Shown here piece by piece: positions 3,291 to 64,000 of a DNA stretch of 64,000 bases. Position numbers and translations under genes: made by a program. Origin of the DNA: a phage; the NCBI GenBank assembly GCA_024672275.1, contig GCA_024672275.1_4536.1; one strand, written 5' to 3'. Every line of letters starts with the position of its first letter. Positions within the stretch are counted from its first letter, which is position 1. The notes under the pieces were generated by a model. It saw nothing but the letters and a program-made list of their open reading frames with translations, was not told the origin of the DNA and did no database searches.

Positions 3291-5444
3291 ATGAAACAAG
3301 CTATATTTACTGTCACGCGAGACAAGAGAGTAAATGCGAGTTCATTTAACTACACGACTGTTGACGGAACAGCAGTCGCTGGTAGAGATTATATTGCAAA
3401 ATCGGGAACACTTGTGTTCCCTGATGATGCTGATTCTGCTACTATTGTGGTTGAAGTATTTGAACGACCAAAGAACTCAATAGATCTTAACTTCTCCCTC
3501 CAAGTTTCAGGGATTAGTCAAAATAACATGATGGTTGAAACAACCATCAATTGTATTATAACTACTATCCAAGAAAATACTACTCCAATAACTTGGACTA
3601 CAAAAGACGTTAAAATGTTCTCTCCTATGTATTGGACAATAGATTCTCAAGCAACGGAAAGTTGTTCTATTGTATCTCATGGAGACTCTTTTACTGCAAG
3701 ATTTGTAAACAGAACAACAGCAGGTTTGGCAGGGGTTATCTGGAGCACAGTTGACAAATATGACCATAAAGGTGTTGGGTATTTGCCTCACACAGATTTA
3801 AGTTCAGAGAAACTTTGGTTTAAAATGGAAATTAGTCAAAACATGCCAGGTTTTAAAGAAGAACCTTTGGTGCCGACTTTGACTGTAACTCTCCTGGATA
3901 AAAGTGTTCATTATGTCAGTTTAGGATTCTACGCTTCAGATATTTCAGAAGATGGTAAAACAGCCACAATAAAGTTAGATTTTAGTAATATCTTTTCTGG
4001 CCCTAATAATGATATTCCTTTGGATATGAGTGCTGTAGATAATATTTTCTTCTCTTTGATTACAGCAAGGTATGAAAAAATAGAAGAGGTTGTACCTATT
4101 GACAGTCAAGAGGCTTGGTTTACTTTCACTCTTCTTGAACCTACTTCTGGTTACAGTATGATGAAAGTCAGCAACCTTGTCCAGCCTGAACATGATATTC
4201 GCATGTGCACATCTTATGATGATATGTATAACCTGACTCCAGAGAGAGTTATTTATAATACATATGCACTAGGTTATCGTGGAATGATTAACCATTACAA
4301 CGGAATGTCTCACTATTATGAGTTCTCATGGAACGGAACATCTTGGGCTTTAAATAGATCTGTTTTCCTGAATCCGGCTACAGAAGCTTGGCTTAACAGT
4401 TTCCATTCTATAGCTAATGAAAATGGCTACACAATAATGAACTCTTTGAGTTTTGAGTTGATGAGCACAGTTTGTCCTGTTGAATGGGTCCAGCATGATT
4501 GGAACGATGCTCTTGCAGCAACAGGGTATAAGCCTCCTAGTTACGTGTTGTCTCCAACTATTGACGAAGGCATGGAATATTTGCAAAATGTTATTAACAA
4601 AATAGCATCTATTTCTCAAGCTAATAACATTCCAGTCGTCATTCAAATTGGTGAACCTTGGTGGTGGTATAATACAGCAAGTAAAATGCCTTGCATATAC
4701 GATTACACTACCAAACTGGCATTCAACACAGAAACTGGCTTATTTGCACAAGATGCAGGAACAATAGATAATTATAAAACAGGAACGCCGTTTGACGAAT
4801 ACTATGCATTTTTGTCTCGTAAACTGGGGTTAAGAGTTACAAAGTTTGCAACAGACACCAGAGCAACTTATCCTGGAGCTAAAGTAACATTGCTTCCGTT
4901 CTTACCGTCAATTATTGGCAACGGTTTGATGGAGAAAGTTAACTTTCCGTCTGATTACTACATTCCTGAAGCTTTTGATTTTTACTGTTCAGAGTGTTAT
5001 GACTGGCTTCTGGAAGGTAAGATGATGAAAGCATTTGATGCAATTACCATACCACATGAAAAATTAGGTTTTGAATATTCTGATATTCACTATCTTTCAG
5101 GTTTTGTTCCAGATGCTACTCTTGCGCCTTTGTATGGCTTCGATCCTGAATCAAACTACCGCACGTATCTTTGGAAAATGATTATAGGTAATATAGTGTT
5201 GAACGCCAACAAGTTTAACGGACTTACACAATATATATGGGCCTATCCTCAAATAATGCACGATTCCATTACGGTAGTTAACTCTCAATCCCAAGTTTTC
5301 TATATGGGTAATGTGCCTTTGAATTGCTATTTGCAAGATATCACTCTTAAACAAGCAAATGTTGAGATTGCTACCATAAGTGGAATTACATTAGCTACTA
5401 AATCTGGAGAAGATTTAGTAACAACACAAAAATTTTATATATAG
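3291..5444 (+). CDS. tail structural protein, putative fibre or baseplate component (717 aa)
   Basis: SD AAGGGG upstream of ATG; long ORF in tail-gene series; no catalytic motif recognised. Confidence 0.45.
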   Translation: MKQAIFTVTRDKRVNASSFNYTTVDGTAVAGRDYIAKSGTLVFPDDADSATIVVEVFERPKNSIDLNFSLQVSGISQNNMMVETTINCIITTIQENTTPITWTTKDVKMFSPMYWTIDSQATESCSIVSHGDSFTARFVNRTTAGLAGVIWSTVDKYDHKGVGYLPHTDLSSEKLWFKMEISQNMPGFKEEPLVPTLTVTLLDKSVHYVSLGFYASDISEDGKTATIKLDFSNIFSGPNNDIPLDMSAVDNIFFSLITARYEKIEEVVPIDSQEAWFTFTLLEPTSGYSMMKVSNLVQPEHDIRMCTSYDDMYNLTPERVIYNTYALGYRGMINHYNGMSHYYEFSWNGTSWALNRSVFLNPATEAWLNSFHSIANENGYTIMNSLSFELMSTVCPVEWVQHDWNDALAATGYKPPSYVLSPTIDEGMEYLQNVINKIASISQANNIPVVIQIGEPWWWYNTASKMPCIYDYTTKLAFNTETGLFAQDAGTIDNYKTGTPFDEYYAFLSRKLGLRVTKFATDTRATYPGAKVTLLPFLPSIIGNGLMEKVNFPSDYYIPEAFDFYCSECYDWLLEGKMMKAFDAITIPHEKLGFEYSDIHYLSGFVPDATLAPLYGFDPESNYRTYLWKMIIGNIVLNANKFNGLTQYIWAYPQIMHDSITVVNSQSQVFYMGNVPLNCYLQDITLKQANVEIATISGITLATKSGEDLVTTQKFYI

Positions 5445-5452
5445 GAGTAAAA

Positions 5453-6757
5453 ATGTCAACTACAATTACTAATTTACCAGAAACATCAAAAGTTAATGGT
5501 TCTGATTACCTGGTTTTAGACCAATCTGATAAGACTGTTAAAAGCACAGTTTCCAACTTTCTTACTGACACTGGGGTGGTTTTAGCCACCCAGTTGAAAG
5601 ATACAGATGGAGCAGATTTAATACAATCCTCAAATGGTAATACTGTTCAGGAAGAGTTGAATAACAATCTTCTTAATAATCGTGAACAGTGGCGTCGTAG
5701 TCTTGCTGAGGCAGGGTTAACCCTTGTCAACGGTAGCTTTGAAGAAGGGGCTACAGTAAACAATAAGACGGATGCTGTTTGGCATATTGCTGGTGGGCAG
5801 TGCTATACGTGGGATGGTGCTTTCCCTAAAGCTGTTCCCTCTGACTCAACCACTACATCAACCGGTGGTGTTGGAACAGGTGCATGGGTTAGTGTTGGTG
5901 ATGCATCTTTGCGTACTGATTTATCTTCATCTGATGGTGCTGGGCTTATTGGTGTTAGCTCTGGAGGGACAGTACAAGGCTCCCTCTCCGACATTAAGAA
6001 CTTAATTAAGCACGCGCAGCCGCTTTCTGACAGACGCATCGTAGCTATTGCTCACCGTGGATATTCAGAGACGTATTTAGAGCAAACACTGATGGCTTAC
6101 AGTCAATGTAATGCTGATGTATTAGAAGTCGATATGCAAACTACATCAGATGGGTATGCTGTGTGCTTCCATGACAATGACTTGTCCCCTGCTACCGTAG
6201 GAGGTTCTGGGGCGGTAAAAGATAACACATACTCCACCGTTTCCGCATTACGTTTTACAAGAGCCGTCGGTACAAGATACGCAGACATGGCGGGCATACC
6301 GACATTGGGGTCAGTCTGCCGGATTGCTATGCGACGCGGTAAAATGCTTCACGCAGAAATAAAAGGCTACAGAACGTTAGAAGATTGCGCTCTTTACTCG
6401 AGCATAGTCAACCAATACGGCTTGAGTCCATACACCACATTTTCATGCTTCGACTTCGCTCCGTTGGCATACACCCACAACATAAATCCGCGTATTACCT
6501 ACGCACTAGAGTTAAACTCTTACGATAGTAGCATGGACGCTAACATAGCAGAGCTTGCGTCCTGGGGCGGGTCTGTGTTGTCTATAAACAAAAACATATT
6601 GAGCACTATAGGCAATAAGAAGCTTCGCGAGTGGGAGGCTATGGGGCTTACTTTGGCCGCATGGACGATATACACGGCAGAACAAATGCAGACCGTTGCC
6701 AATTACGGCATACGTCTTGTATATCTGGATAAAGATTTTTACAACATTATAGGTTAA
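5453..6757 (+). CDS. tail fibre protein with C-terminal glycerophosphodiester phosphodiesterase (GDPD) domain
   Basis: SD AGGAG; N-terminal fibre-anchor-like segment; C-terminal half has GDPD signature IAHRGYSETYLEQTLMAY...CNADVLEVDMQTTSDGYAVCFHDND. Confidence 0.7.
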   Translation: MSTTITNLPETSKVNGSDYLVLDQSDKTVKSTVSNFLTDTGVVLATQLKDTDGADLIQSSNGNTVQEELNNNLLNNREQWRRSLAEAGLTLVNGSFEEGATVNNKTDAVWHIAGGQCYTWDGAFPKAVPSDSTTTSTGGVGTGAWVSVGDASLRTDLSSSDGAGLIGVSSGGTVQGSLSDIKNLIKHAQPLSDRRIVAIAHRGYSETYLEQTLMAYSQCNADVLEVDMQTTSDGYAVCFHDNDLSPATVGGSGAVKDNTYSTVSALRFTRAVGTRYADMAGIPTLGSVCRIAMRRGKMLHAEIKGYRTLEDCALYSSIVNQYGLSPYTTFSCFDFAPLAYTHNINPRITYALELNSYDSSMDANIAELASWGGSVLSINKNILSTIGNKKLREWEAMGLTLAAWTIYTAEQMQTVANYGIRLVYLDKDFYNIIG

Positions 6758-6762
6758 CTGAT

Positions 6763-7530
6763 ATGAAGCAAATTATTAACTCCCGCAATTTCTCACACTG
6801 GGACTTTTTAAACACTGGTTCTGGTACAACGATGGTTGTGCCGGATGGTAGGTTACGTATGCAAAACCCTGATGACTCAAGCAGAGCAATGGTGATTCGC
6901 GATATCATGCTAATGCCTGGGGATACTGTGACCATCTATGGTATTGGAAGGACAACGTCGTTATCATCAGGCGCATTTATAATGGGGGTGGAGTACCCTG
7001 TTGGCAAACGCCTCGCTCAAGCTAACTTTATCCATAACGAAGACAGCTTACTTCTTAAATGTTCATGGAAATGTCCGGTAGACGCCGAACCGTGCACTGT
7101 TAGGCTTGCTTGCGGTCTTCCGAAATCAACAACAGCCATTGCGTATATGACAGACTTATGGATCGAGATTGACTCTGAAAACTTGAGTAGTCGACGCATC
7201 TTAATGGACGGTGTTCTTGAGATAAACGCTGGTGTGGCATCTATATCAACGGCATATGACCGTTGTAACGTAGGATCAATTAACGCGTCCAGCGTCAACG
7301 TTGACATTAGCCCAGCCGTCTTCACCGCAGGAGACCGTAGGCCTTTGGCGTTTGTCCAGCCGATTTTTAACACTAAAGAAACGTACTCATCCGGAGTTTT
7401 AATTCCTGTCGCTGACTTCACTAAGGCTGGGGTTCTAAACATTAGACTTCAAAACCCAGCTACAGGGAATCTCGTAGGTGTTACTGGAGCCAGTATTTAC
7501 AAAACAATAGCTTTCACTGTATATATTTGA
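6763..7530 (+). CDS. hypothetical structural protein (255 aa)
   Basis: ORF contiguous with the tail-gene series; no motif recognised. Confidence 0.35.
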   Translation: MKQIINSRNFSHWDFLNTGSGTTMVVPDGRLRMQNPDDSSRAMVIRDIMLMPGDTVTIYGIGRTTSLSSGAFIMGVEYPVGKRLAQANFIHNEDSLLLKCSWKCPVDAEPCTVRLACGLPKSTTAIAYMTDLWIEIDSENLSSRRILMDGVLEINAGVASISTAYDRCNVGSINASSVNVDISPAVFTAGDRRPLAFVQPIFNTKETYSSGVLIPVADFTKAGVLNIRLQNPATGNLVGVTGASIYKTIAFTVYI

Positions 7531-8785: not shown

Positions 8786-10272
8786 TGGACGAATATGGTT
8801 TGACAGATGCGGGATTTGTAATCCCGACTTTTGACGATGTTCTAAACAATTATATGACAGCAGTAAAAAACACATTTGGTGCAGATGCAGCCACTTCGGA
8901 AGATACTGTGATCGGACAACTGTTTAGAATAATTGCATACACAGATTACACATTGTGGGAAGGTATGCAAGGTGTTTATAATACTCAAACACTGGATGGT
9001 GCAGAAGGTATTTATCTTGATGAAATCTTTTCTAAACGCGGTTTCTATCGAGCAGGTGCAGCAGCAAGTACAGGTTATGCATATGTTAAGAGTAATAACA
9101 AAGCAGCTTGGACTTATGAGCTAGGCACGGATATTTACTTCAACTCTGACAGTGATATGAACTACTATGTTAGCACACCAACTATGTTGAATGCTAAGAT
9201 TGCAGCTTATCAAATCACTCGTGCTAATGCAACTGCTACAGGTGTTCCAAATATTACTTTTTATGCACAAAGTGCGGTGGATGGAGGACTAAACAGTAAA
9301 ACACTTGCACCTGGTTCTTCTACATTTATAACCGATCTTGAAACTTTTATCAAGGCAAACTTAACAGAGGCTGATCGTAGTCTTGTATTTTCTGATTCTG
9401 GTAACTTGTCAATTGGTTTTACTTCTTTAACCAGTGATACTCCAGTGGGACTAGTAACTCCTATCAAATTTTATGCTAGTGTTCCAGTTGGAACAAAATG
9501 GAGTGAAATTCCGGTAGTTGCAGCAGAGAAAGGATACAATCCGGTGGGTGTGGAGTCTATTACAGGAATATCTTCTACCTTTACAGGTTATCTTGATAGT
9601 GGTAACTTCTATTCGTTTTCTCCTGGTCGAGATGTTGAGACAGATGCAGAATTCCGCTCTCGTTTCAATGACAACGTTGACGAAGCTAACGCAGGGACAC
9701 GAGCAGCTATTGTGAAAGCTCTGCTACTTACAGATGGTGTTACTAAGGTGAAGATTTATGATAACCCTACATTACATGATCAAGAACATGCTCCAGCTAT
9801 GACTTTCCAGACTATAGTTTATGGTGGCAGTGCAGAAGAAATTGCAAATGTTATCTATAAAACCAAACCAATCAACACTTTGACACACGGAACAACTAAC
9901 ATAACAGTTACAACAGAAGATGGAGGACAAGAAATTATTCGCTTCTCTCCTGGTGCTTCTGCTATGTATTCTGTAAAACTTGTTTATCAAACTGTCAACG
10001 GAACAACTTTAAGTGGAACAGAAAAACAAAACATCGTAGAAGCTTTACAAAACCTGCAAGCTTACTTTGAGTTAGGTTCTTCAGTAACGAACGATCAAAT
10101 CAAAGGTGTTATTTATGCAGCACTTGCTTTTGGACGCTTGACTTCTCTTCGTGTTTATGTTAAACTTAATACTGAGGATGACAGTAAATATACAGAGAAT
10201 AATATAGTTCCTGCTTATAATGTTGTCCCTTCTTTTGACCTTGATAACATTTCTTACGAGTATGGAGTGTAA
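8785..10272 (+). CDS. baseplate J-like protein (495 aa)
   Basis: N-terminus MDEYGLTDAGFVIPTFDDVLNNYMTAVKNTFGADA resembles the baseplate J / gp47 family N-terminal pattern; position in tail module. Confidence 0.55.
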   Translation: MDEYGLTDAGFVIPTFDDVLNNYMTAVKNTFGADAATSEDTVIGQLFRIIAYTDYTLWEGMQGVYNTQTLDGAEGIYLDEIFSKRGFYRAGAAASTGYAYVKSNNKAAWTYELGTDIYFNSDSDMNYYVSTPTMLNAKIAAYQITRANATATGVPNITFYAQSAVDGGLNSKTLAPGSSTFITDLETFIKANLTEADRSLVFSDSGNLSIGFTSLTSDTPVGLVTPIKFYASVPVGTKWSEIPVVAAEKGYNPVGVESITGISSTFTGYLDSGNFYSFSPGRDVETDAEFRSRFNDNVDEANAGTRAAIVKALLLTDGVTKVKIYDNPTLHDQEHAPAMTFQTIVYGGSAEEIANVIYKTKPINTLTHGTTNITVTTEDGGQEIIRFSPGASAMYSVKLVYQTVNGTTLSGTEKQNIVEALQNLQAYFELGSSVTNDQIKGVIYAALAFGRLTSLRVYVKLNTEDDSKYTENNIVPAYNVVPSFDLDNISYEYGV

Positions 10273-61971: not shown

Positions 61972-62160
61972 ATGGCACGTTTAGCAGATAACCCTGTATT
62001 CTACCCCGTTCTTGATCTTTATGATGAATTGACATATGTTGTGGAGCGGTATAACTACAATGAAGATCTTTTGGAGACAAACCTTAAAGTGGTCCTGATG
62101 AAAGCCTATCAGAAAGGGCAACGTGAAATTTTGGAGAGTATGAAAAATGCGAATAACTGA
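61972..62160 (+). CDS. small hypothetical protein (start adjusted to Met13 of track ORF)
   Basis: SD AAGGAGA precedes the internal ATG. Confidence 0.35.
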   Translation: MARLADNPVFYPVLDLYDELTYVVERYNYNEDLLETNLKVVLMKAYQKGQREILESMKNANN

Positions 62161-62689
62161 TGATTATGTATTCTTCTTTTCACATAAAGATGTGTTTAGT
62201 AATTGGTATATTGCACCCTTTACAGAAACCGAACCAGGTTACAATCAAACATTTAATTGTGTCGAACAATATATGATGTGGCGTAAAGCTTTGCTTTTTA
62301 ATGACCACAACACTGCACAGGCTATTCTGACTCATAGTTTGATACGGAAAGATGAGAAGATCCAAGCTTATTACAAACGTATGGGTAGGGCAGTGTCGGA
62401 TTTTGATAACAACGTATGGGAAGAGAACCGTGAGCGTATTGTTATGCGAGGTTTATGCTTGAAATATGTACAGAATCCAGATTTGTATGCAGACTTACAC
62501 CTTTACCAATACAAAACGTTTGTTGAAGCAAGCCCCTACGATAAGGTTTACGGAATTGGAATGGGGATGTATGAACCAGGGGTGCTAAACCCTGCCACCT
62601 GGAAAGGGCAGAATCTTTTAGGCAAATATCATAATAAACTGATCGAAATACTTTTCCCAGACAAAATACCGCAAAGACGATATTTGTGA
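62147..62689 (+). CDS. NADAR (YbiA-like, DUF1768) family protein (180 aa)
   Basis: FFFSHKDVFSNWYIAPF, FNCVEQYMMWRKALLF and IVMRGLCLKYVQNPDL match the NADAR pattern. Confidence 0.65.
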   Translation: MRITDDYVFFFSHKDVFSNWYIAPFTETEPGYNQTFNCVEQYMMWRKALLFNDHNTAQAILTHSLIRKDEKIQAYYKRMGRAVSDFDNNVWEENRERIVMRGLCLKYVQNPDLYADLHLYQYKTFVEASPYDKVYGIGMGMYEPGVLNPATWKGQNLLGKYHNKLIEILFPDKIPQRRYL

Positions 62690-62745
62690 TATTTTAACTT
62701 TTTTCATTTTTAGAACAAAGGTGTCACTTTGTAGCACAGAAATAA

Positions 62746-62779
62746 GGCTCCTACAGCACCGTAGAGAGCCTATTATTTT
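62746..62779 (+). terminator. putative terminator GGCTCCTAC-(6 nt)-GTAGAGAGCC + TATTATTTT
   Basis: 9-bp stem with one bulge, then a T-rich tract, after the NADAR gene; approximate. Confidence 0.4.
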
Positions 62780-62930
62780 GTCCTATACAAACACTTGTCT
62801 TTTTCAGTTTGCATCACTGGGATTCGATCTGAGTGGGTTCCTGAAGGTCTGCCAATAAGATTAAAGGTTATCTCAAATTCCCATTACCTATTATCTCAAA
62901 AATCCCTCAAATTATTTAAACTTTTTAAGA

Positions 62931-63120
62931 ATTTACAAAAGTGAAAGTTGAAAACCAAAATTTAAAGTTTAGGAAAATTATCTTAAAATGTCAGATACAA
63001 AACAAAACTCAAAAGTCAAGGAAAATTTTAAAAATTTTGCGCGCCCACAGTATTTAAAGTTTTTTTGCTTTTACAAAAATGAAAGTACAAAAGCAAAATT
63101 TAAAGTTTACAAAAATTTAT
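62931..63120. repeat. AT-rich imperfect direct repeats (~46 bp, ~80% identical; core AAAATTTAAAGTTTA), iteron-like
   Basis: TACAAAAGTGAAAGTTGAAAACCAAAATTTAAAGTTTAGGAAAATT vs TACAAAAATGAAAGTACAAAAGCAAAATTTAAAGTTTACAAAAATT, with related words between; approximate coordinates. Confidence 0.5.
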
Positions 63121-63129
63121 GCAGATGGG

Positions 63130-63235
63130 AATGAGAAGAGTTCTCATATGGAAATGCAAATGATAATGATTCGCATTTAAGTTTATAAATGAGATTGATT
63201 CTTATTTAATAAGGTAAATGATAATCATTCTCATC
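63130..63235. promoter_or_regulatory. array of palindromic / Fur-box-like operator sites
   Basis: ATGAGAAGAGTTCTCAT palindrome; AAATGATAATGATTCGCATTT and AAATGATAATCATTCTCATC resemble the Fur box GATAATGATAATCATTATC; approximate coordinates. Confidence 0.4.
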
Positions 63236-63493
63236 TAGAGAATGACGCGCAGGGGCGGTGTTTGTCTCGCGCTCCCGTGTCCCCTCGCCATGTAATAAGA
63301 ATAACAGATCCAGCCAGGAAAGCAAGCGATTATTTTATCTTTACATTTCTTTACAAATATATAGCGCCCAGCCTACCGGCGATCAACCTTCCAACCAGTG
63401 CCCTGGTATGTTAGCCCCGCCTTTACGCCGTGGGGTGGCGCTTCCTCTTCTGTATGTAAAACAGTATAAGCCCGATCCCTGGGCTTGTCAAGA

Positions 63494-63760
63494 TTATTTT
63501 TTGTTTTCTTGCCAGGAAAGGACACCTAACCAAAAATGCATATCGCCCCGCGCCCCTGGTGGGATCTTGCTTTCCCCGCCGCCACTGCAAGCCCATAAAT
63601 AACCATCAGCGAACGGATCAAAGTTTTCTATTTCTTCCACCTTATGATCGCCCAGGTTGAGAACTGTTTCAACCTTTAAGCCCGTTGCGCTTGCTACCTG
63701 GTGCACCGTGCCGCCTTGCCAGCCCAATGAGTGCATAAGGTGTAATGTAGTATTTGTCAT
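63494..63760 (-). CDS. hypothetical protein in the GC-richer terminal segment (88 aa); coding status uncertain
   Basis: ORF with weak SD; N-terminal half looks protein-like, C-terminal half is G/P-rich. Confidence 0.25.
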   Translation of the reverse strand: MTNTTLHLMHSLGWQGGTVHQVASATGLKVETVLNLGDHKVEEIENFDPFADGYLWACSGGGESKIPPGARGDMHFWLGVLSWQENKK

Positions 63761-64000
63761 GGTGTCGCCCTTTCTTTGTTGTGCGCCCTAGTTGGCGCGG
63801 TAGAAAGATGATAGCCTTTTCCTTTATATATAGCAAGCAAAAAGAAAATAAAAAAGATTGAAAAAGTGGTTGACGTTCCTCACCTGGTAGCGTAGTATTC
63901 ATCTTGTCGAGGGGGGCGCGGCACAACGACAATAAACAACAGGCGGGCGCAATGCAGGACGGGCAAAGGTGAGGATCTCCATAATCCACCGTCAACCAAC

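Follow-up and report, generated by a model that had tools for sequence, protein, structure and literature searches.

Four palindromic boxes of 21 bp, placed exactly 29 bp from start to start (63129-63236), lie in non-coding DNA of a phAPEC8-like (Phapecoctavirus) genome from a virulent coliphage, and they match Fur-type sites in every sense testable from sequence. The stretch of this genome that was analyzed, referred to here as the window, comprises 64 kb. We tentatively interpret the boxes as an array of operators for host Fur that gates early transcription, a reading that is possible rather than probable. The boxes and the AT-rich repeats beside them would form the left half of a conserved control module in non-coding DNA, located where the terminal block of small early genes has its inner boundary. 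The module is ordered as AT-rich direct repeats, Fur-type boxes and a GC-rich conserved block, and is kept across the Stephanstirmvirinae and Vequintavirinae with lineage-specific repeats, one to five Fur boxes and the GC-rich block.

The left limit of the non-coding module is an intrinsic terminator (62745..62779), a hairpin AGGCTCC..GAGAGCCT followed by the T-run attatttt, which is also annotated as a terminator in phAPEC8. It comes after the last rightward gene, which encodes a NADAR domain (62147-62689), and closes the upstream operon. On the other side lies an ORF of 88 amino acids (phrog_19316; 63494..63760, minus strand), upstream of a leftward promoter described below and co-oriented with it. 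This ORF is annotated in relatives and belongs to a PHROG without assigned function; it gave no significant Pfam match (best E 0.03, under the gathering score of the family). A promoter-like element, TTGACG-17-TAGTAT (63870..63898, plus strand), opens the rightward block of small early genes. That block extends for some 12.9 kb to the inferred genome end and has many products without assigned function. The module thus sits at the inner edge of this block, about 12.9 kb (approximately 8-8.5%) from the inferred genome end; the corresponding distance in Justusliebigvirus is 11.3-12.1 kb. The termini of the window phage were placed by homology to phages BME3 and DE16. The genome end of the Justusliebigvirus BME3 has been defined with PhageTerm (PMC12210895) and corresponds by homology to position ~1817 of DE16, a point 12.9 kb rightward of the boxes. 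A packaging or terminus region, one of the functions suggested in a preliminary description of this DNA, was not borne out: because the terminal repeat of the relatives maps elsewhere, that reading is rejected, and by this homology the Fur-box stretch is not a terminus.

The boxes are imperfect palindromes of 17-21 bp of the form AAATGAkAATnATTmTCATTT, starting at 63129, 63158, 63187 and 63216. Scored with a weight matrix of phage boxes, box 1 (GAATGAGAAGAGTTCTCATAT, 63129..63149) reaches 20.5 bits, box 2 (AAATGATAATGATTCGCATTT, 63158..63178) 26.6 bits, box 3 (AAATGAGATTGATTCTTATTT, 63187..63207) 22.0 bits and box 4 (AAATGATAATCATTCTCATCT, 63216..63236) 28.0 bits. Box 2 agrees with the Fur consensus at 14 of 19 positions and box 4 at 16 of 19, the latter with a perfect 7-1-7 core TGATAATcATTCTCA. 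When up to 3 mismatches were allowed, AATGAKAATNATTMTCATT matched the window four times, always inside the array, where 0.41 matches were expected and 0 of 100 shuffles reached four. The best fit to the 19-bp Fur consensus GATAATGATAATCATTATC, GTAAATGATAATCATTCTC at 63214-63232 (16/19), is the sole match with at most 3 mismatches in the 64 kb (expected 0.01). The preliminary description had placed palindromic, operator-like sites directly after the AT-rich repeats, and these are present there and exceed chance; its resemblance of two of them to the Fur box is also real, but the sites number four. It had further named scores no better than those of random AT-rich sequence as grounds for dismissing the resemblance. 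Since in dinucleotide-preserving shuffles of the local AT-rich stretch the probability of a best match with at most 3 mismatches was 0.0002-0.002, the boxes do better than such sequence.

The resemblance extends to the operators of the host. A weight matrix built from 74 phage boxes alone was scanned on 50 kb of E. coli K-12, and its top 7 matches all fell in the fepB-entC, fepA-fes and fepD-entS control regions, three divergent ent-fep promoter regions that together make up 726 bp of the DNA scanned. In the 15 kb around fhuA the best match was the fhuA Fur box (20.6 bits), the next one scoring 7.7. We take the fepA-fes, fepD-entS, fepB-entC and fhuA regions to be established Fur operators, and the phage-derived matrix ranks them first. 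The phage boxes are the stronger sites, with 20-30 bits vs. 14-21 bits for the E. coli operators scored. Their consensus favours TGAGAAT (G in 56%) over the TGATAAT of the Fur consensus, and they have conserved AAA/TTT flanks. Fur boxes are well known from bacterial iron regulons and from a few cargo genes of temperate phages (stx1, sit). Our literature searches on Fur and phages, including T5 and the Vequintavirinae, brought up no description of Fur boxes in virulent phages.

The sequence of the boxes and their most frequent spacing, 29 bp, are kept in Phapecoctavirus, Justusliebigvirus, Certrevirus, Mydovirus, Seunavirus, Vequintavirus, Henunavirus and Avunavirus. An equivalent of box 4 was present in 16 of 16 phages examined, and the interval between the conserved block and the proximal box is free of indels in 20 sequences. 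In several relatives the module contains no more than one or two boxes. In IMG/VR the exact pattern of a single box hit more than 120 scattered contigs and was uninformative, and the double-box pattern hit 3 loci. Across the whole genome of DE16, strong boxes are confined to the module and to a place beside the terminus, so that they flank the terminal early block on both sides. Elsewhere in these genomes a box also accompanies a promoter-like sequence: within the terminal repeat it comes directly after TTGATT-17-TAATAA (DE16) or TATAGA (BME3). The explanation by Fur operators leaves this confinement to both ends of the block unexplained.

The same boxes occur in the unrelated T5-like siphoviruses. 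In T5 the elements annotated as DRC repeats and as palindromes E, G and I are Fur-type boxes (22-30 bits), found at 9472, 9507 (weak), 9576 and 9611, and the 55 nt comprising boxes 2 and 3 of the window with their spacer (63152-63206) are 83-87% identical to part of a T5-like box array. The T5 array occupies 9472-9637, with the 7.9% nick just to its right, and its box at 9611-9631 spans position 9618, the calculated shear point of first-step transfer. In T5, as in DE16, every strong box is either within the terminal early segment or next to it, and one is 55-230 bp from the end. No mention of Fur was found in the T5 literature consulted. A tblastn search with T5 terminal-repeat proteins (A1, A2, dmp and others) gave no match in the 64-kb window and about 90 kb of relative loci, which included the phapecoctavirus early block. 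Likewise, tblastn of E. coli Fur against a whole relative genome returned only noise (E >5) and no Fur homologue. Because T5-like phages share the boxes without detected shared terminal-repeat proteins, and no Fur homologue was detected, the comparison suggests that the partner of the boxes is a host factor rather than a phage factor. The direct repeats beside the boxes differ completely between subfamilies, and the constancy of the boxes while these phage-specific repeats diverge accords with a host partner that stays the same.

To the right of the array lies the conserved GC-rich non-coding block (63237..63457), a candidate early non-coding RNA of about 220 nt on the minus strand, directed leftward toward the boxes. 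Its predicted source is a sigma70-type promoter, TTGACA-17-TATACT with an A-tract upstream (63463..63491, minus strand; 11/12), located about 215 nt from the boxes on the opposite strand and aimed toward them. The hexamers and the 17-bp spacing of this promoter are kept in 15 of 15 phages (9-12 of 12 positions) and the spacer sequence varies. The block itself is approximately 70-85% conserved in unannotated DNA of many genera. Several features would fit a structured RNA: in the proposed fold 92.8% of cells pair vs. 29-48% with the partners slid, G.U asymmetry favours the minus strand, and a putative 5' pseudoknot stem shows compensatory changes from CCCC/GGGG to CCAG/CUGG and CCAA/UUGG. The covariation score is modest (0.109 vs. 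0.090, 1 of 500 shuffles), RNAalifold gave a weak consensus with a covariation term of only -0.36, and thermodynamic folding of the block was not significant on either strand (z-scores -0.29 and +0.52). An Rfam scan of 62400-64000 on both strands, with E up to 5, returned noise only. Protein coding in the block was considered and rejected, as indels are not multiples of three and include a 1-nt indel between near-identical phages; for this reason the ORF of 114 amino acids annotated in phAPEC8 is probably spurious. The hairpin of box 4 was flagged as terminator-like on the minus strand, and the combinations of hairpin and U-run at the boxes would make weak intrinsic terminators.

A further promoter-like element, weak and rightward, overlaps the array. 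Box 4 covers the -35 and the spacer of GTAAAT-18-GAGAAT-6-CA, which matches the consensus at 8 of 12 positions and has a degenerate -35 in the window (GTAAAT). The conserved part, GAGAAT-gacgcg-CA (63238..63251, plus strand), allows three readings: it may be a fifth Fur-like hexamer, the inverted partner of 63226-63233; it may be a weak -10 reading rightward, followed by a GC-rich discriminator and a CA start that does not vary; or it may be the 3' tail of the leftward RNA. In two lineages the -10 is without the critical A at position 2 (CTGAAT, CGGAAT). TTGAAT-18-nnGAAT-6-CA is present in 10 of 10 Vequintavirinae examined, where the match to a promoter is better (TTGAAT-18-CAGAAT).

In the mechanism that we propose, dimers of host Fe2+-Fur would occupy the four adjoining sites, and as the 29-bp spacing is about one Fur footprint, they would form a continuous protein coat of about 116 bp. 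The near-consensus sigma70 promoter (read 63491..63463, minus) would drive its transcript toward the boxes, and the array would start about 7 nt past the end of the conserved GC-rich early transcript. The bound array may then act as an iron-dependent roadblock and operator that fixes the 3' end of the leftward RNA and keeps host RNA polymerase out of the AT-rich repeats and the antisense of the upstream operon. The rightward promoter at box 4 would be occluded by it as well. Under iron scarcity apo-Fur would leave, and roadblock and occlusion would both relax. Against the explanation stands the fact that Fur does not usually act by a roadblock about 215 nt past the promoter.

The AT-rich DNA to the left of the boxes has a GC content of 25%. 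Its longest repeat pair is 72 nt long (62908..62979 and 63046..63117), 82% identical and offset by 138 bp. The sub-motif TTTAAAsTTT occurs at 62915 (TTTAAACTTT) and 62961 (TTTAAAGTTT) in copy 1 and at 63053 and 63099 (both TTTAAAGTTT) in copy 2. With up to 1 mismatch it has 11 matches in the 64 kb, 4 of them in the direct repeats. The pair of direct repeats of about 46 bp reported in the preliminary description does exist, but the repeats measure 72 nt and 46 bp is the spacing of the sub-motif within each copy. The unit TTATTTAAAsTTTTT is found in 2-3 copies in other Stephanstirmvirinae, and the Vequintavirinae have unrelated repeats with GATC palindromes at the same place; the AT-rich direct repeats are, on this comparison, lineage-specific. 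They might be bound by a phage protein that evolves with them, or might consist of bent DNA that melts easily. The explanation by Fur operators assigns them no specific role.

An unlikely alternative is a replication origin, in which a phage initiator would bind the AT-rich direct repeats as iterons that also serve as the unwinding element, the leftward transcript would act as R-loop, primer or activator, and the boxes would be architectural sites for host factors. Origins primed or activated by a transcript are known from T4 (oriE/oriF), T7 (the primary origin) and ColE1, and this view is favoured by the location of the module, which like the T7 primary origin lies at the edge of the early region. 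The layout is also origin-like: an early sigma70 promoter, a GC- and purine-rich transcript, palindromes, and then 2-5 long direct repeats in DNA of 25% GC. Iterons are recognized as at least three direct repeats beside AT-rich DNA; relatives have three direct repeats, and the two 72-nt repeats of the window, with their four TTTAAAsTTT sub-motifs, conform to this. The change of repeats between subfamilies is what iterons co-evolving with their initiator would show, and the GATC palindromes in the Vequintavirinae repeats are in keeping with an origin. However, no DnaA-box or IHF consensus was found in 62690-63500, and the neighbours (the NADAR protein and the 88-aa protein) include no recognized initiator, although this last point is weak evidence. 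The GC-skew analysis suggested as a check for an origin showed no switch at the site: skew, which in such phages mainly tracks transcription, flips sign at about 20 and 57 kb together with gene orientation and not at 63 kb. Fur is, to our knowledge, not an origin factor. Moreover, the terminal repeat of T5 contains this box array too, but the T5 origins have been mapped near the genome middle (Davison, bioRxiv 10.1101/866236). Of the iteron origin in the preliminary description, the repeats and the AT-richness therefore stand, but DnaA and IHF sites, a recognized initiator and a skew switch were not found.

Somewhat more doubtful still is the view that the boxes are operators of a phage-encoded regulator that shares or mimics the specificity of Fur, a cluster for early timing in the manner of Cro or a repressor, in which host Fur would play no part. 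Operators of phage repressors typically take the form of 17-bp palindromes arrayed at a fixed spacing, and the region is rich in small early genes without assigned function. The preference for TGAGAAT over TGATAAT and the conserved AAA/TTT flanks also favour a specificity of the phage's own. Against such a regulator speak the recurrence of the boxes in T5-like siphoviruses, with no T5 terminal-repeat homologue detected by tblastn in the sequences compared, the lack of a Fur homologue in the tblastn search of the whole relative genome, and the constancy of the box across subfamilies in which the adjacent phage-specific repeats diverge completely. Given how well the phage-box matrix recovers the operators of host Fur, this protein would be a competitor for the boxes anyway. 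It is improbable, in our view, that the boxes serve simply as a decoy with no target nearby, about 7 strong sites per genome in hundreds of copies that would titrate host Fur and derepress iron uptake for iron-dependent enzymes of the phage, its class Ia and III ribonucleotide reductases. Multicopy Fur boxes do derepress the Fur regulon, as in the FURTA assay, and the strength of the phage sites relative to those of E. coli, their tight 29-bp packing and the ribonucleotide reductase subunits encoded by the phage are all consistent with titration. A decoy, however, needs no fixed position, whereas the distance from the proximal box to the block is invariant, boxes are confined to both ends of the early block, and several relatives have only one or two of them at the module. 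In addition, T5 degrades host DNA early in infection, so that derepression of host genes would be pointless there.

A similarly low probability attaches to the view that the boxes mark, like the injection stop of T5, where the DNA segment that enters first comes to its end, as a boundary or stop signal that would work through DNA structure or a bound protein together with the boxes near the end and would affect delivery, end protection or the topology of that segment rather than a promoter. This would agree with the place of the module at about 8.5% from the inferred end in Phapecoctavirus and its similar distance in Justusliebigvirus, with the T5 array adjoining the 7.9% nick and its box across the shear point, and with the limitation of strong boxes in DE16 and T5 to the terminal early segment and its borders. 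On the other hand, we know of no report of two-step DNA transfer in these myoviruses, the termini of the window phage are placed by homology, and DnaA boxes like those of the T5 region are missing from the module. The block of small genes also continues across the terminus in the circular map, so the early segment is less clearly delimited than in T5. A broader version, that Fur-type boxes bracket a first-entering host-takeover segment in three groups of virulent enterobacterial phages, the T5-, rV5- and phAPEC8-like ones, with the array at about 8% as the equivalent of the T5 injection stop and Fur or another box-binder as the trans factor, is highly speculative and the least probable of the readings given here.

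Strong, phased arrays of Fur type thus occur in two myovirus subfamilies and in T5-like siphoviruses at the ends of the terminal early segment, and in the myoviruses they are tied to a conserved candidate early non-coding transcript. If host Fur binds them, as in the operator reading that we prefer, lytic phages would read or manipulate the iron status of the host at the start of infection, which would be relevant to phage therapy at iron-limited body sites. If the bracketing reading were true, two-step delivery or activation of the DNA, coupled to host iron status, would be expected in rV5- and phAPEC8-like myoviruses as well. The identity offered here for the T5 DRC repeats and palindromes E, G and I, situated at the boundary of first-step transfer, yields a simple testable hypothesis.

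Among known systems, the Fur operators of the E. coli iron regulon (19-bp Fur box, 7-1-7 TGATAATnATTATCA) have the same motif, box 4 being closest to it, and are clustered at several host promoters, as the phage sites are. The phage sites differ in belonging to a virulent phage, in forming a set of four at a strict 29-bp phase, in lying downstream of a strong promoter aimed at them and not over a clear -35/-10, and in the G at heptamer position 4 and the AAA/TTT flanks of their consensus. Origins of the iteron or transcript-primed type (lambda ori, P1 oriR, T4 oriE/oriF, the T7 primary origin) likewise combine direct repeats, AT-rich DNA, palindromic protein sites and a host-polymerase promoter firing into them, but neither an adjacent initiator gene nor DnaA/IHF sites nor a skew signal was found at the module. 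Decoys cloned in the FURTA assay also place multiple strong Fur sites on high-copy DNA; these are laboratory constructs, however, whereas the phage sites hold conserved positions that a pure decoy would not need. Finally, Repeat Region 3 in the left terminal repeat of T5 (DRC copies 1-4 and palindromes E, G, H and I), the candidate region of the injection-stop signal, has a phased array of Fur-type boxes followed by a GC-rich palindrome. The T5 array differs in its period (35 bp vs. 29 bp), in the DnaA boxes (paired, in inverted repeats D'/C') and nine DRD repeats on its other side, DnaA boxes being absent from the window module, and in having no conserved GC-rich block with its promoter. Both arrays nevertheless lie about 8% from a genome end, and in T5 as in a relative of the window phage the boxes are confined to the terminal early segment.

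Over its last 1.4 kb, the window shares 98-99% identity with phAPEC8-like myoviruses (Phapecoctavirus, Stephanstirmvirinae), e.g. vB_EcoM_DE16 and ZCKP1. The repeats and operator-like sites discussed here sit within a gap of ~1.2 kb. Its left border is the last gene of the rightward cluster, encoding a NADAR-domain protein (62147-62689) and followed by a hairpin with a T-run (62745-62779) that is visible in the sequence and annotated as a terminator in phAPEC8; its right border is TTGACG-17-TAGTAT (63870-63898), the first promoter in a long rightward series of small early genes. The 114-aa GTG ORF phAPEC8_00257, annotated in phAPEC8 (window 63258-63602, plus strand) and overlapping a conserved non-coding block, is probably not a gene, since 1-nt indels break the frame between near-identical phages; the ORF conserved in relatives is one of 88 aa on the opposite strand (63494-63760, phrog_19316). 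The early region of phAPEC8 also carries 20-nt annotated "PHIRE promoters", GTAGGGCGGCAATGGTGCCG (4308-4327, 5836-5855, 6852-6871 and 4591-4610), which lie directly downstream of sigma70-type promoters, fold as a hairpin and resemble conserved stem-loops in the 5' leaders of early transcripts, not promoters.

A repeat search identified a pair of direct repeats, each 72 nt long, at 62908-62979 and 63046-63117 (82% identical, offset 138 bp). The sub-motif TTTAAAsTTT at 62915, 62961, 63053 and 63099 accounts for four of its 11 near-exact copies in the whole 64 kb, and TTTACAAAA is present in both repeats (62933 and 63071). Direct repeats had been noticed in the preliminary description with a length of ~46 bp, which is the spacing of TTTAAAsTTT and not the repeat unit. 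To the right of the repeats are four imperfect palindromes of 21 bp (boxes 1-4), starting at 63129, 63158, 63187 and 63216, exactly 29 bp apart. With up to three mismatches, AATGAKAATNATTMTCATT matches the window only at these boxes (0.41 matches expected; none of 100 shuffles reached four). Both the repeats and the operator-like sites of the first reading are thus confirmed as observations, with four Fur-like sites in place of the two first counted. The stretch 63214-63232 agrees at 16 of 19 positions with the consensus operator of Fur, the iron-sensing repressor of the host, and is the sole match with three or fewer mismatches in the 64 kb (0.01 expected). Such a match arises in 0.02-0.2% of dinucleotide-preserving shuffles of only the 25-29%-GC stretch around the boxes, and the suggested resemblance to a Fur box therefore exceeds chance, also by the standard of random AT-rich DNA.

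A weight matrix derived from 74 non-redundant boxes, all from phage loci, was scanned over E. coli K-12. Between 595001 and 645000 its top seven matches all fall in the intergenic regions of fepB-entC, fepA-fes and fepD-entS. These regions, the three divergent promoters under Fur control in the enterobactin cluster, comprise 726 bp of the 50 kb scanned. In the 15 kb around fhuA the best match, TTATAATAATCATTCTCGTTT (20.6 bits, the next having 7.7), is located 55 bp upstream of fhuA and is the known fhuA Fur operator. Boxes 1-4 score 20.5-28 bits on this matrix, although they are included in its training set. The phage boxes are indistinguishable from host Fur operators in sequence specificity, and at the sequence level the case for assigning them to the Fur type is strong.

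A distant BLAST search with 62690-63500 showed that ~63150-63500 is kept at 70-85% identity, mostly in unannotated DNA, beyond Phapecoctavirus in Justusliebigvirus, in Citrobacter phage Tr1 and in the Vequintavirinae, namely Vequintavirus (rV5), Seunavirus (PVP-SE1), Certrevirus (CR8, KaOmega, POP15), Mydovirus (KpS8), Henunavirus (an Erwinia phage) and Avunavirus (Av-05). The common order, from left to right in window orientation, is three to five long AT-rich direct repeats of subfamily-specific sequence, Fur-type boxes (one to five per relative, modal spacing 29 bp), a link of invariant length (nnGAAT-rrCnsr-CA), a GC-rich block and a minus-strand sigma70 promoter. In the Vequintavirinae the AT-rich repeats are replaced by three ~75-bp repeats of quite different sequence, GGTTCTCGATCG..TTTTCGTTTTCAAAA..AAAAAATTTTT, containing GATC palindromes and A/T tracts (L004 1230-1460, L009 1230-1440, L008 1250-1440 and, in rV5_ev168, L005 1250-1400). 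rV5_ev168 further has, at 1500-1790, two tandem units of a Fur box and a GC hairpin with loop GGTGnTTGTCTC, and lacks the other parts of the conserved block; GATAATGATAATCGTTCTC, the second of its boxes, agrees with the 19-bp Fur consensus at 17 positions.

The leftward promoter of the window (TTGACA-17-TATACT, within 63237-63491, minus strand) retains its hexamers and 17-bp spacing in all 15 phages, with 9-12 of 12 hexamer positions matching. An A/T-rich tract lies upstream, and the spacer sequence exists in several unrelated versions. Hexamers and spacing kept while the spacer varies are strong comparative evidence of a real promoter, which would fire leftward through the GC-rich block toward the boxes. 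The block it would drive (~210-220 nt from 63237, minus strand), conserved in two myovirus subfamilies, is not protein-coding, as its indels are not multiples of three. In a hand-drawn structure 92.8% of cells pair, against 29-48% with the partners slid, and G.U pairs favour the minus strand over the plus strand (104/120 vs. 87/120 in one helix, 95/99 vs. 78/99 in another). Covariation in this structure is modest (0.109 vs. 0.090, reached by one of 500 shuffles). A 5' pseudoknot stem reads CCCC/GGGG, replaced by CCAG/CUGG in Tr1 and by CCAA/UUGG in the Erwinia phage. RNAalifold gave little consensus structure for the block, its folding energies were ordinary, and no Rfam family matches it. Given this mixed evidence we term the block a candidate early non-coding RNA; its 5' part may form an H-type pseudoknot. 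In all relatives the block contains, almost unchanged, the tandem motif CTTTACAnnTCTTTACAAA (63341-63357), made up of two CTTTACA units at a distance of 11 bp.

The ends of Justusliebigvirus BME3 were determined by PhageTerm as 342-bp direct terminal repeats (PMC12210895). The BME3 record begins at the physical end, and in phages VEcB and EmilieFrey the position matching its terminal repeat lies 11.3-12.1 kb to the right of the module. By homology the genome end corresponds to DE16 ~1817, 12.9 kb (~8.5% of the genome) right of the boxes and separated from them by ~35 small rightward early genes. At this distance the module locus is not the terminus, and the packaging or terminus region envisaged in the preliminary description is not supported. 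A complete Phapecoctavirus genome was put together from DE16 1-80000, the window and DE16 139000-151363. In it, boxes scoring 12 bits or more are limited to two places: the module, with four, and the non-coding DNA next to the inferred end, with three (DE16 808, 1564 and 1743). BME3 has boxes at 52-75 and 247-270, ~55 and 250 bp from its end; in Stephanstirmvirinae such boxes were found both within and next to the short direct terminal repeat. One terminal box lies directly 3' of a promoter-like TTGATT-17-TAATAA (DE16) or TATAGA (BME3), and a promoter-like element followed by such a putative operator is the classical Fur-repressed arrangement. The left-end copy of this element would read into the genome.

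In our preferred, tentative reading, the boxes may form a host-Fur operator array gating early transcription at the boundary of the early block. The footprint of Fur is 27-31 bp, so that the 29-bp period is close to one footprint and four sites would form a continuous block of ~116 bp. The covered array would begin 7 nt past the conserved RNA block, a distance invariant among relatives, and would overlap a minus-strand terminator-like hairpin. The array also overlaps a weak promoter-like element of rightward orientation, with the sequence TTGAAT-18-CAGAAT-6-CA in 10 of 10 Vequintavirinae and GTAAAT-18-GAGAAT in the window. Bound Fur would set the end of the leftward RNA, block read-through of the leftward transcript and occlude the rightward start, and low iron would release these controls. 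It is unlikely that the module is instead a replication origin, with iterons and a primer transcript. That the boxes merely act as a decoy for Fur appears remote. Fur operators are already known as a kind of element; a search of the Fur and phage literature revealed no account of a phased array that is conserved among virulent phages, is linked to an early non-coding RNA and is limited to the ends of terminal early segments.

T5-like phages have, ~9.6 kb into their left terminal repeat, a segment with 83-87% identity to window 63152-63206. In T5 (AY587007) the boxes are at 9472-9492, 9507-9527 (weak), 9576-9596 (29.9 bits) and 9611-9637, corresponding to copies 1, 3 and 4 of the annotated "direct repeat C" and to palindromes E, G and I, with a period of 35 bp compared to 29 bp in the window. 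The T5 array is followed by GC palindrome J and then by the 7.9% nick at 9661-9668. Davison placed the first-step-transfer shear point at 9618 and considered that the injection-stop signal probably resides in this "Repeat Region 3", with Fur unmentioned (bioRxiv 10.1101/866236). A corresponding boundary or injection-stop function of the phAPEC8-like module is conceivable and quite improbable. Within T5 1-111000, all boxes that reach 12 bits lie in the terminal repeat (230-250, 6021-6041 and the array at 9472-9637). It is doubtful that the boxes are operators of a phage-encoded regulator: the T5 terminal-repeat proteins, including A1 and A2, had no tblastn match in the window or the retrieved relative loci, and tblastn with a Fur query detected no homologue in the complete genome of the close relative DE16. 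A cis element and its confinement to terminal early segments, common to two unrelated groups in which no common protein was detected, favour a host factor as the binding partner of the boxes. The long-known, unexplained repeats of T5 thereby gain an identity, judged from their sequence, as Fur-type boxes.
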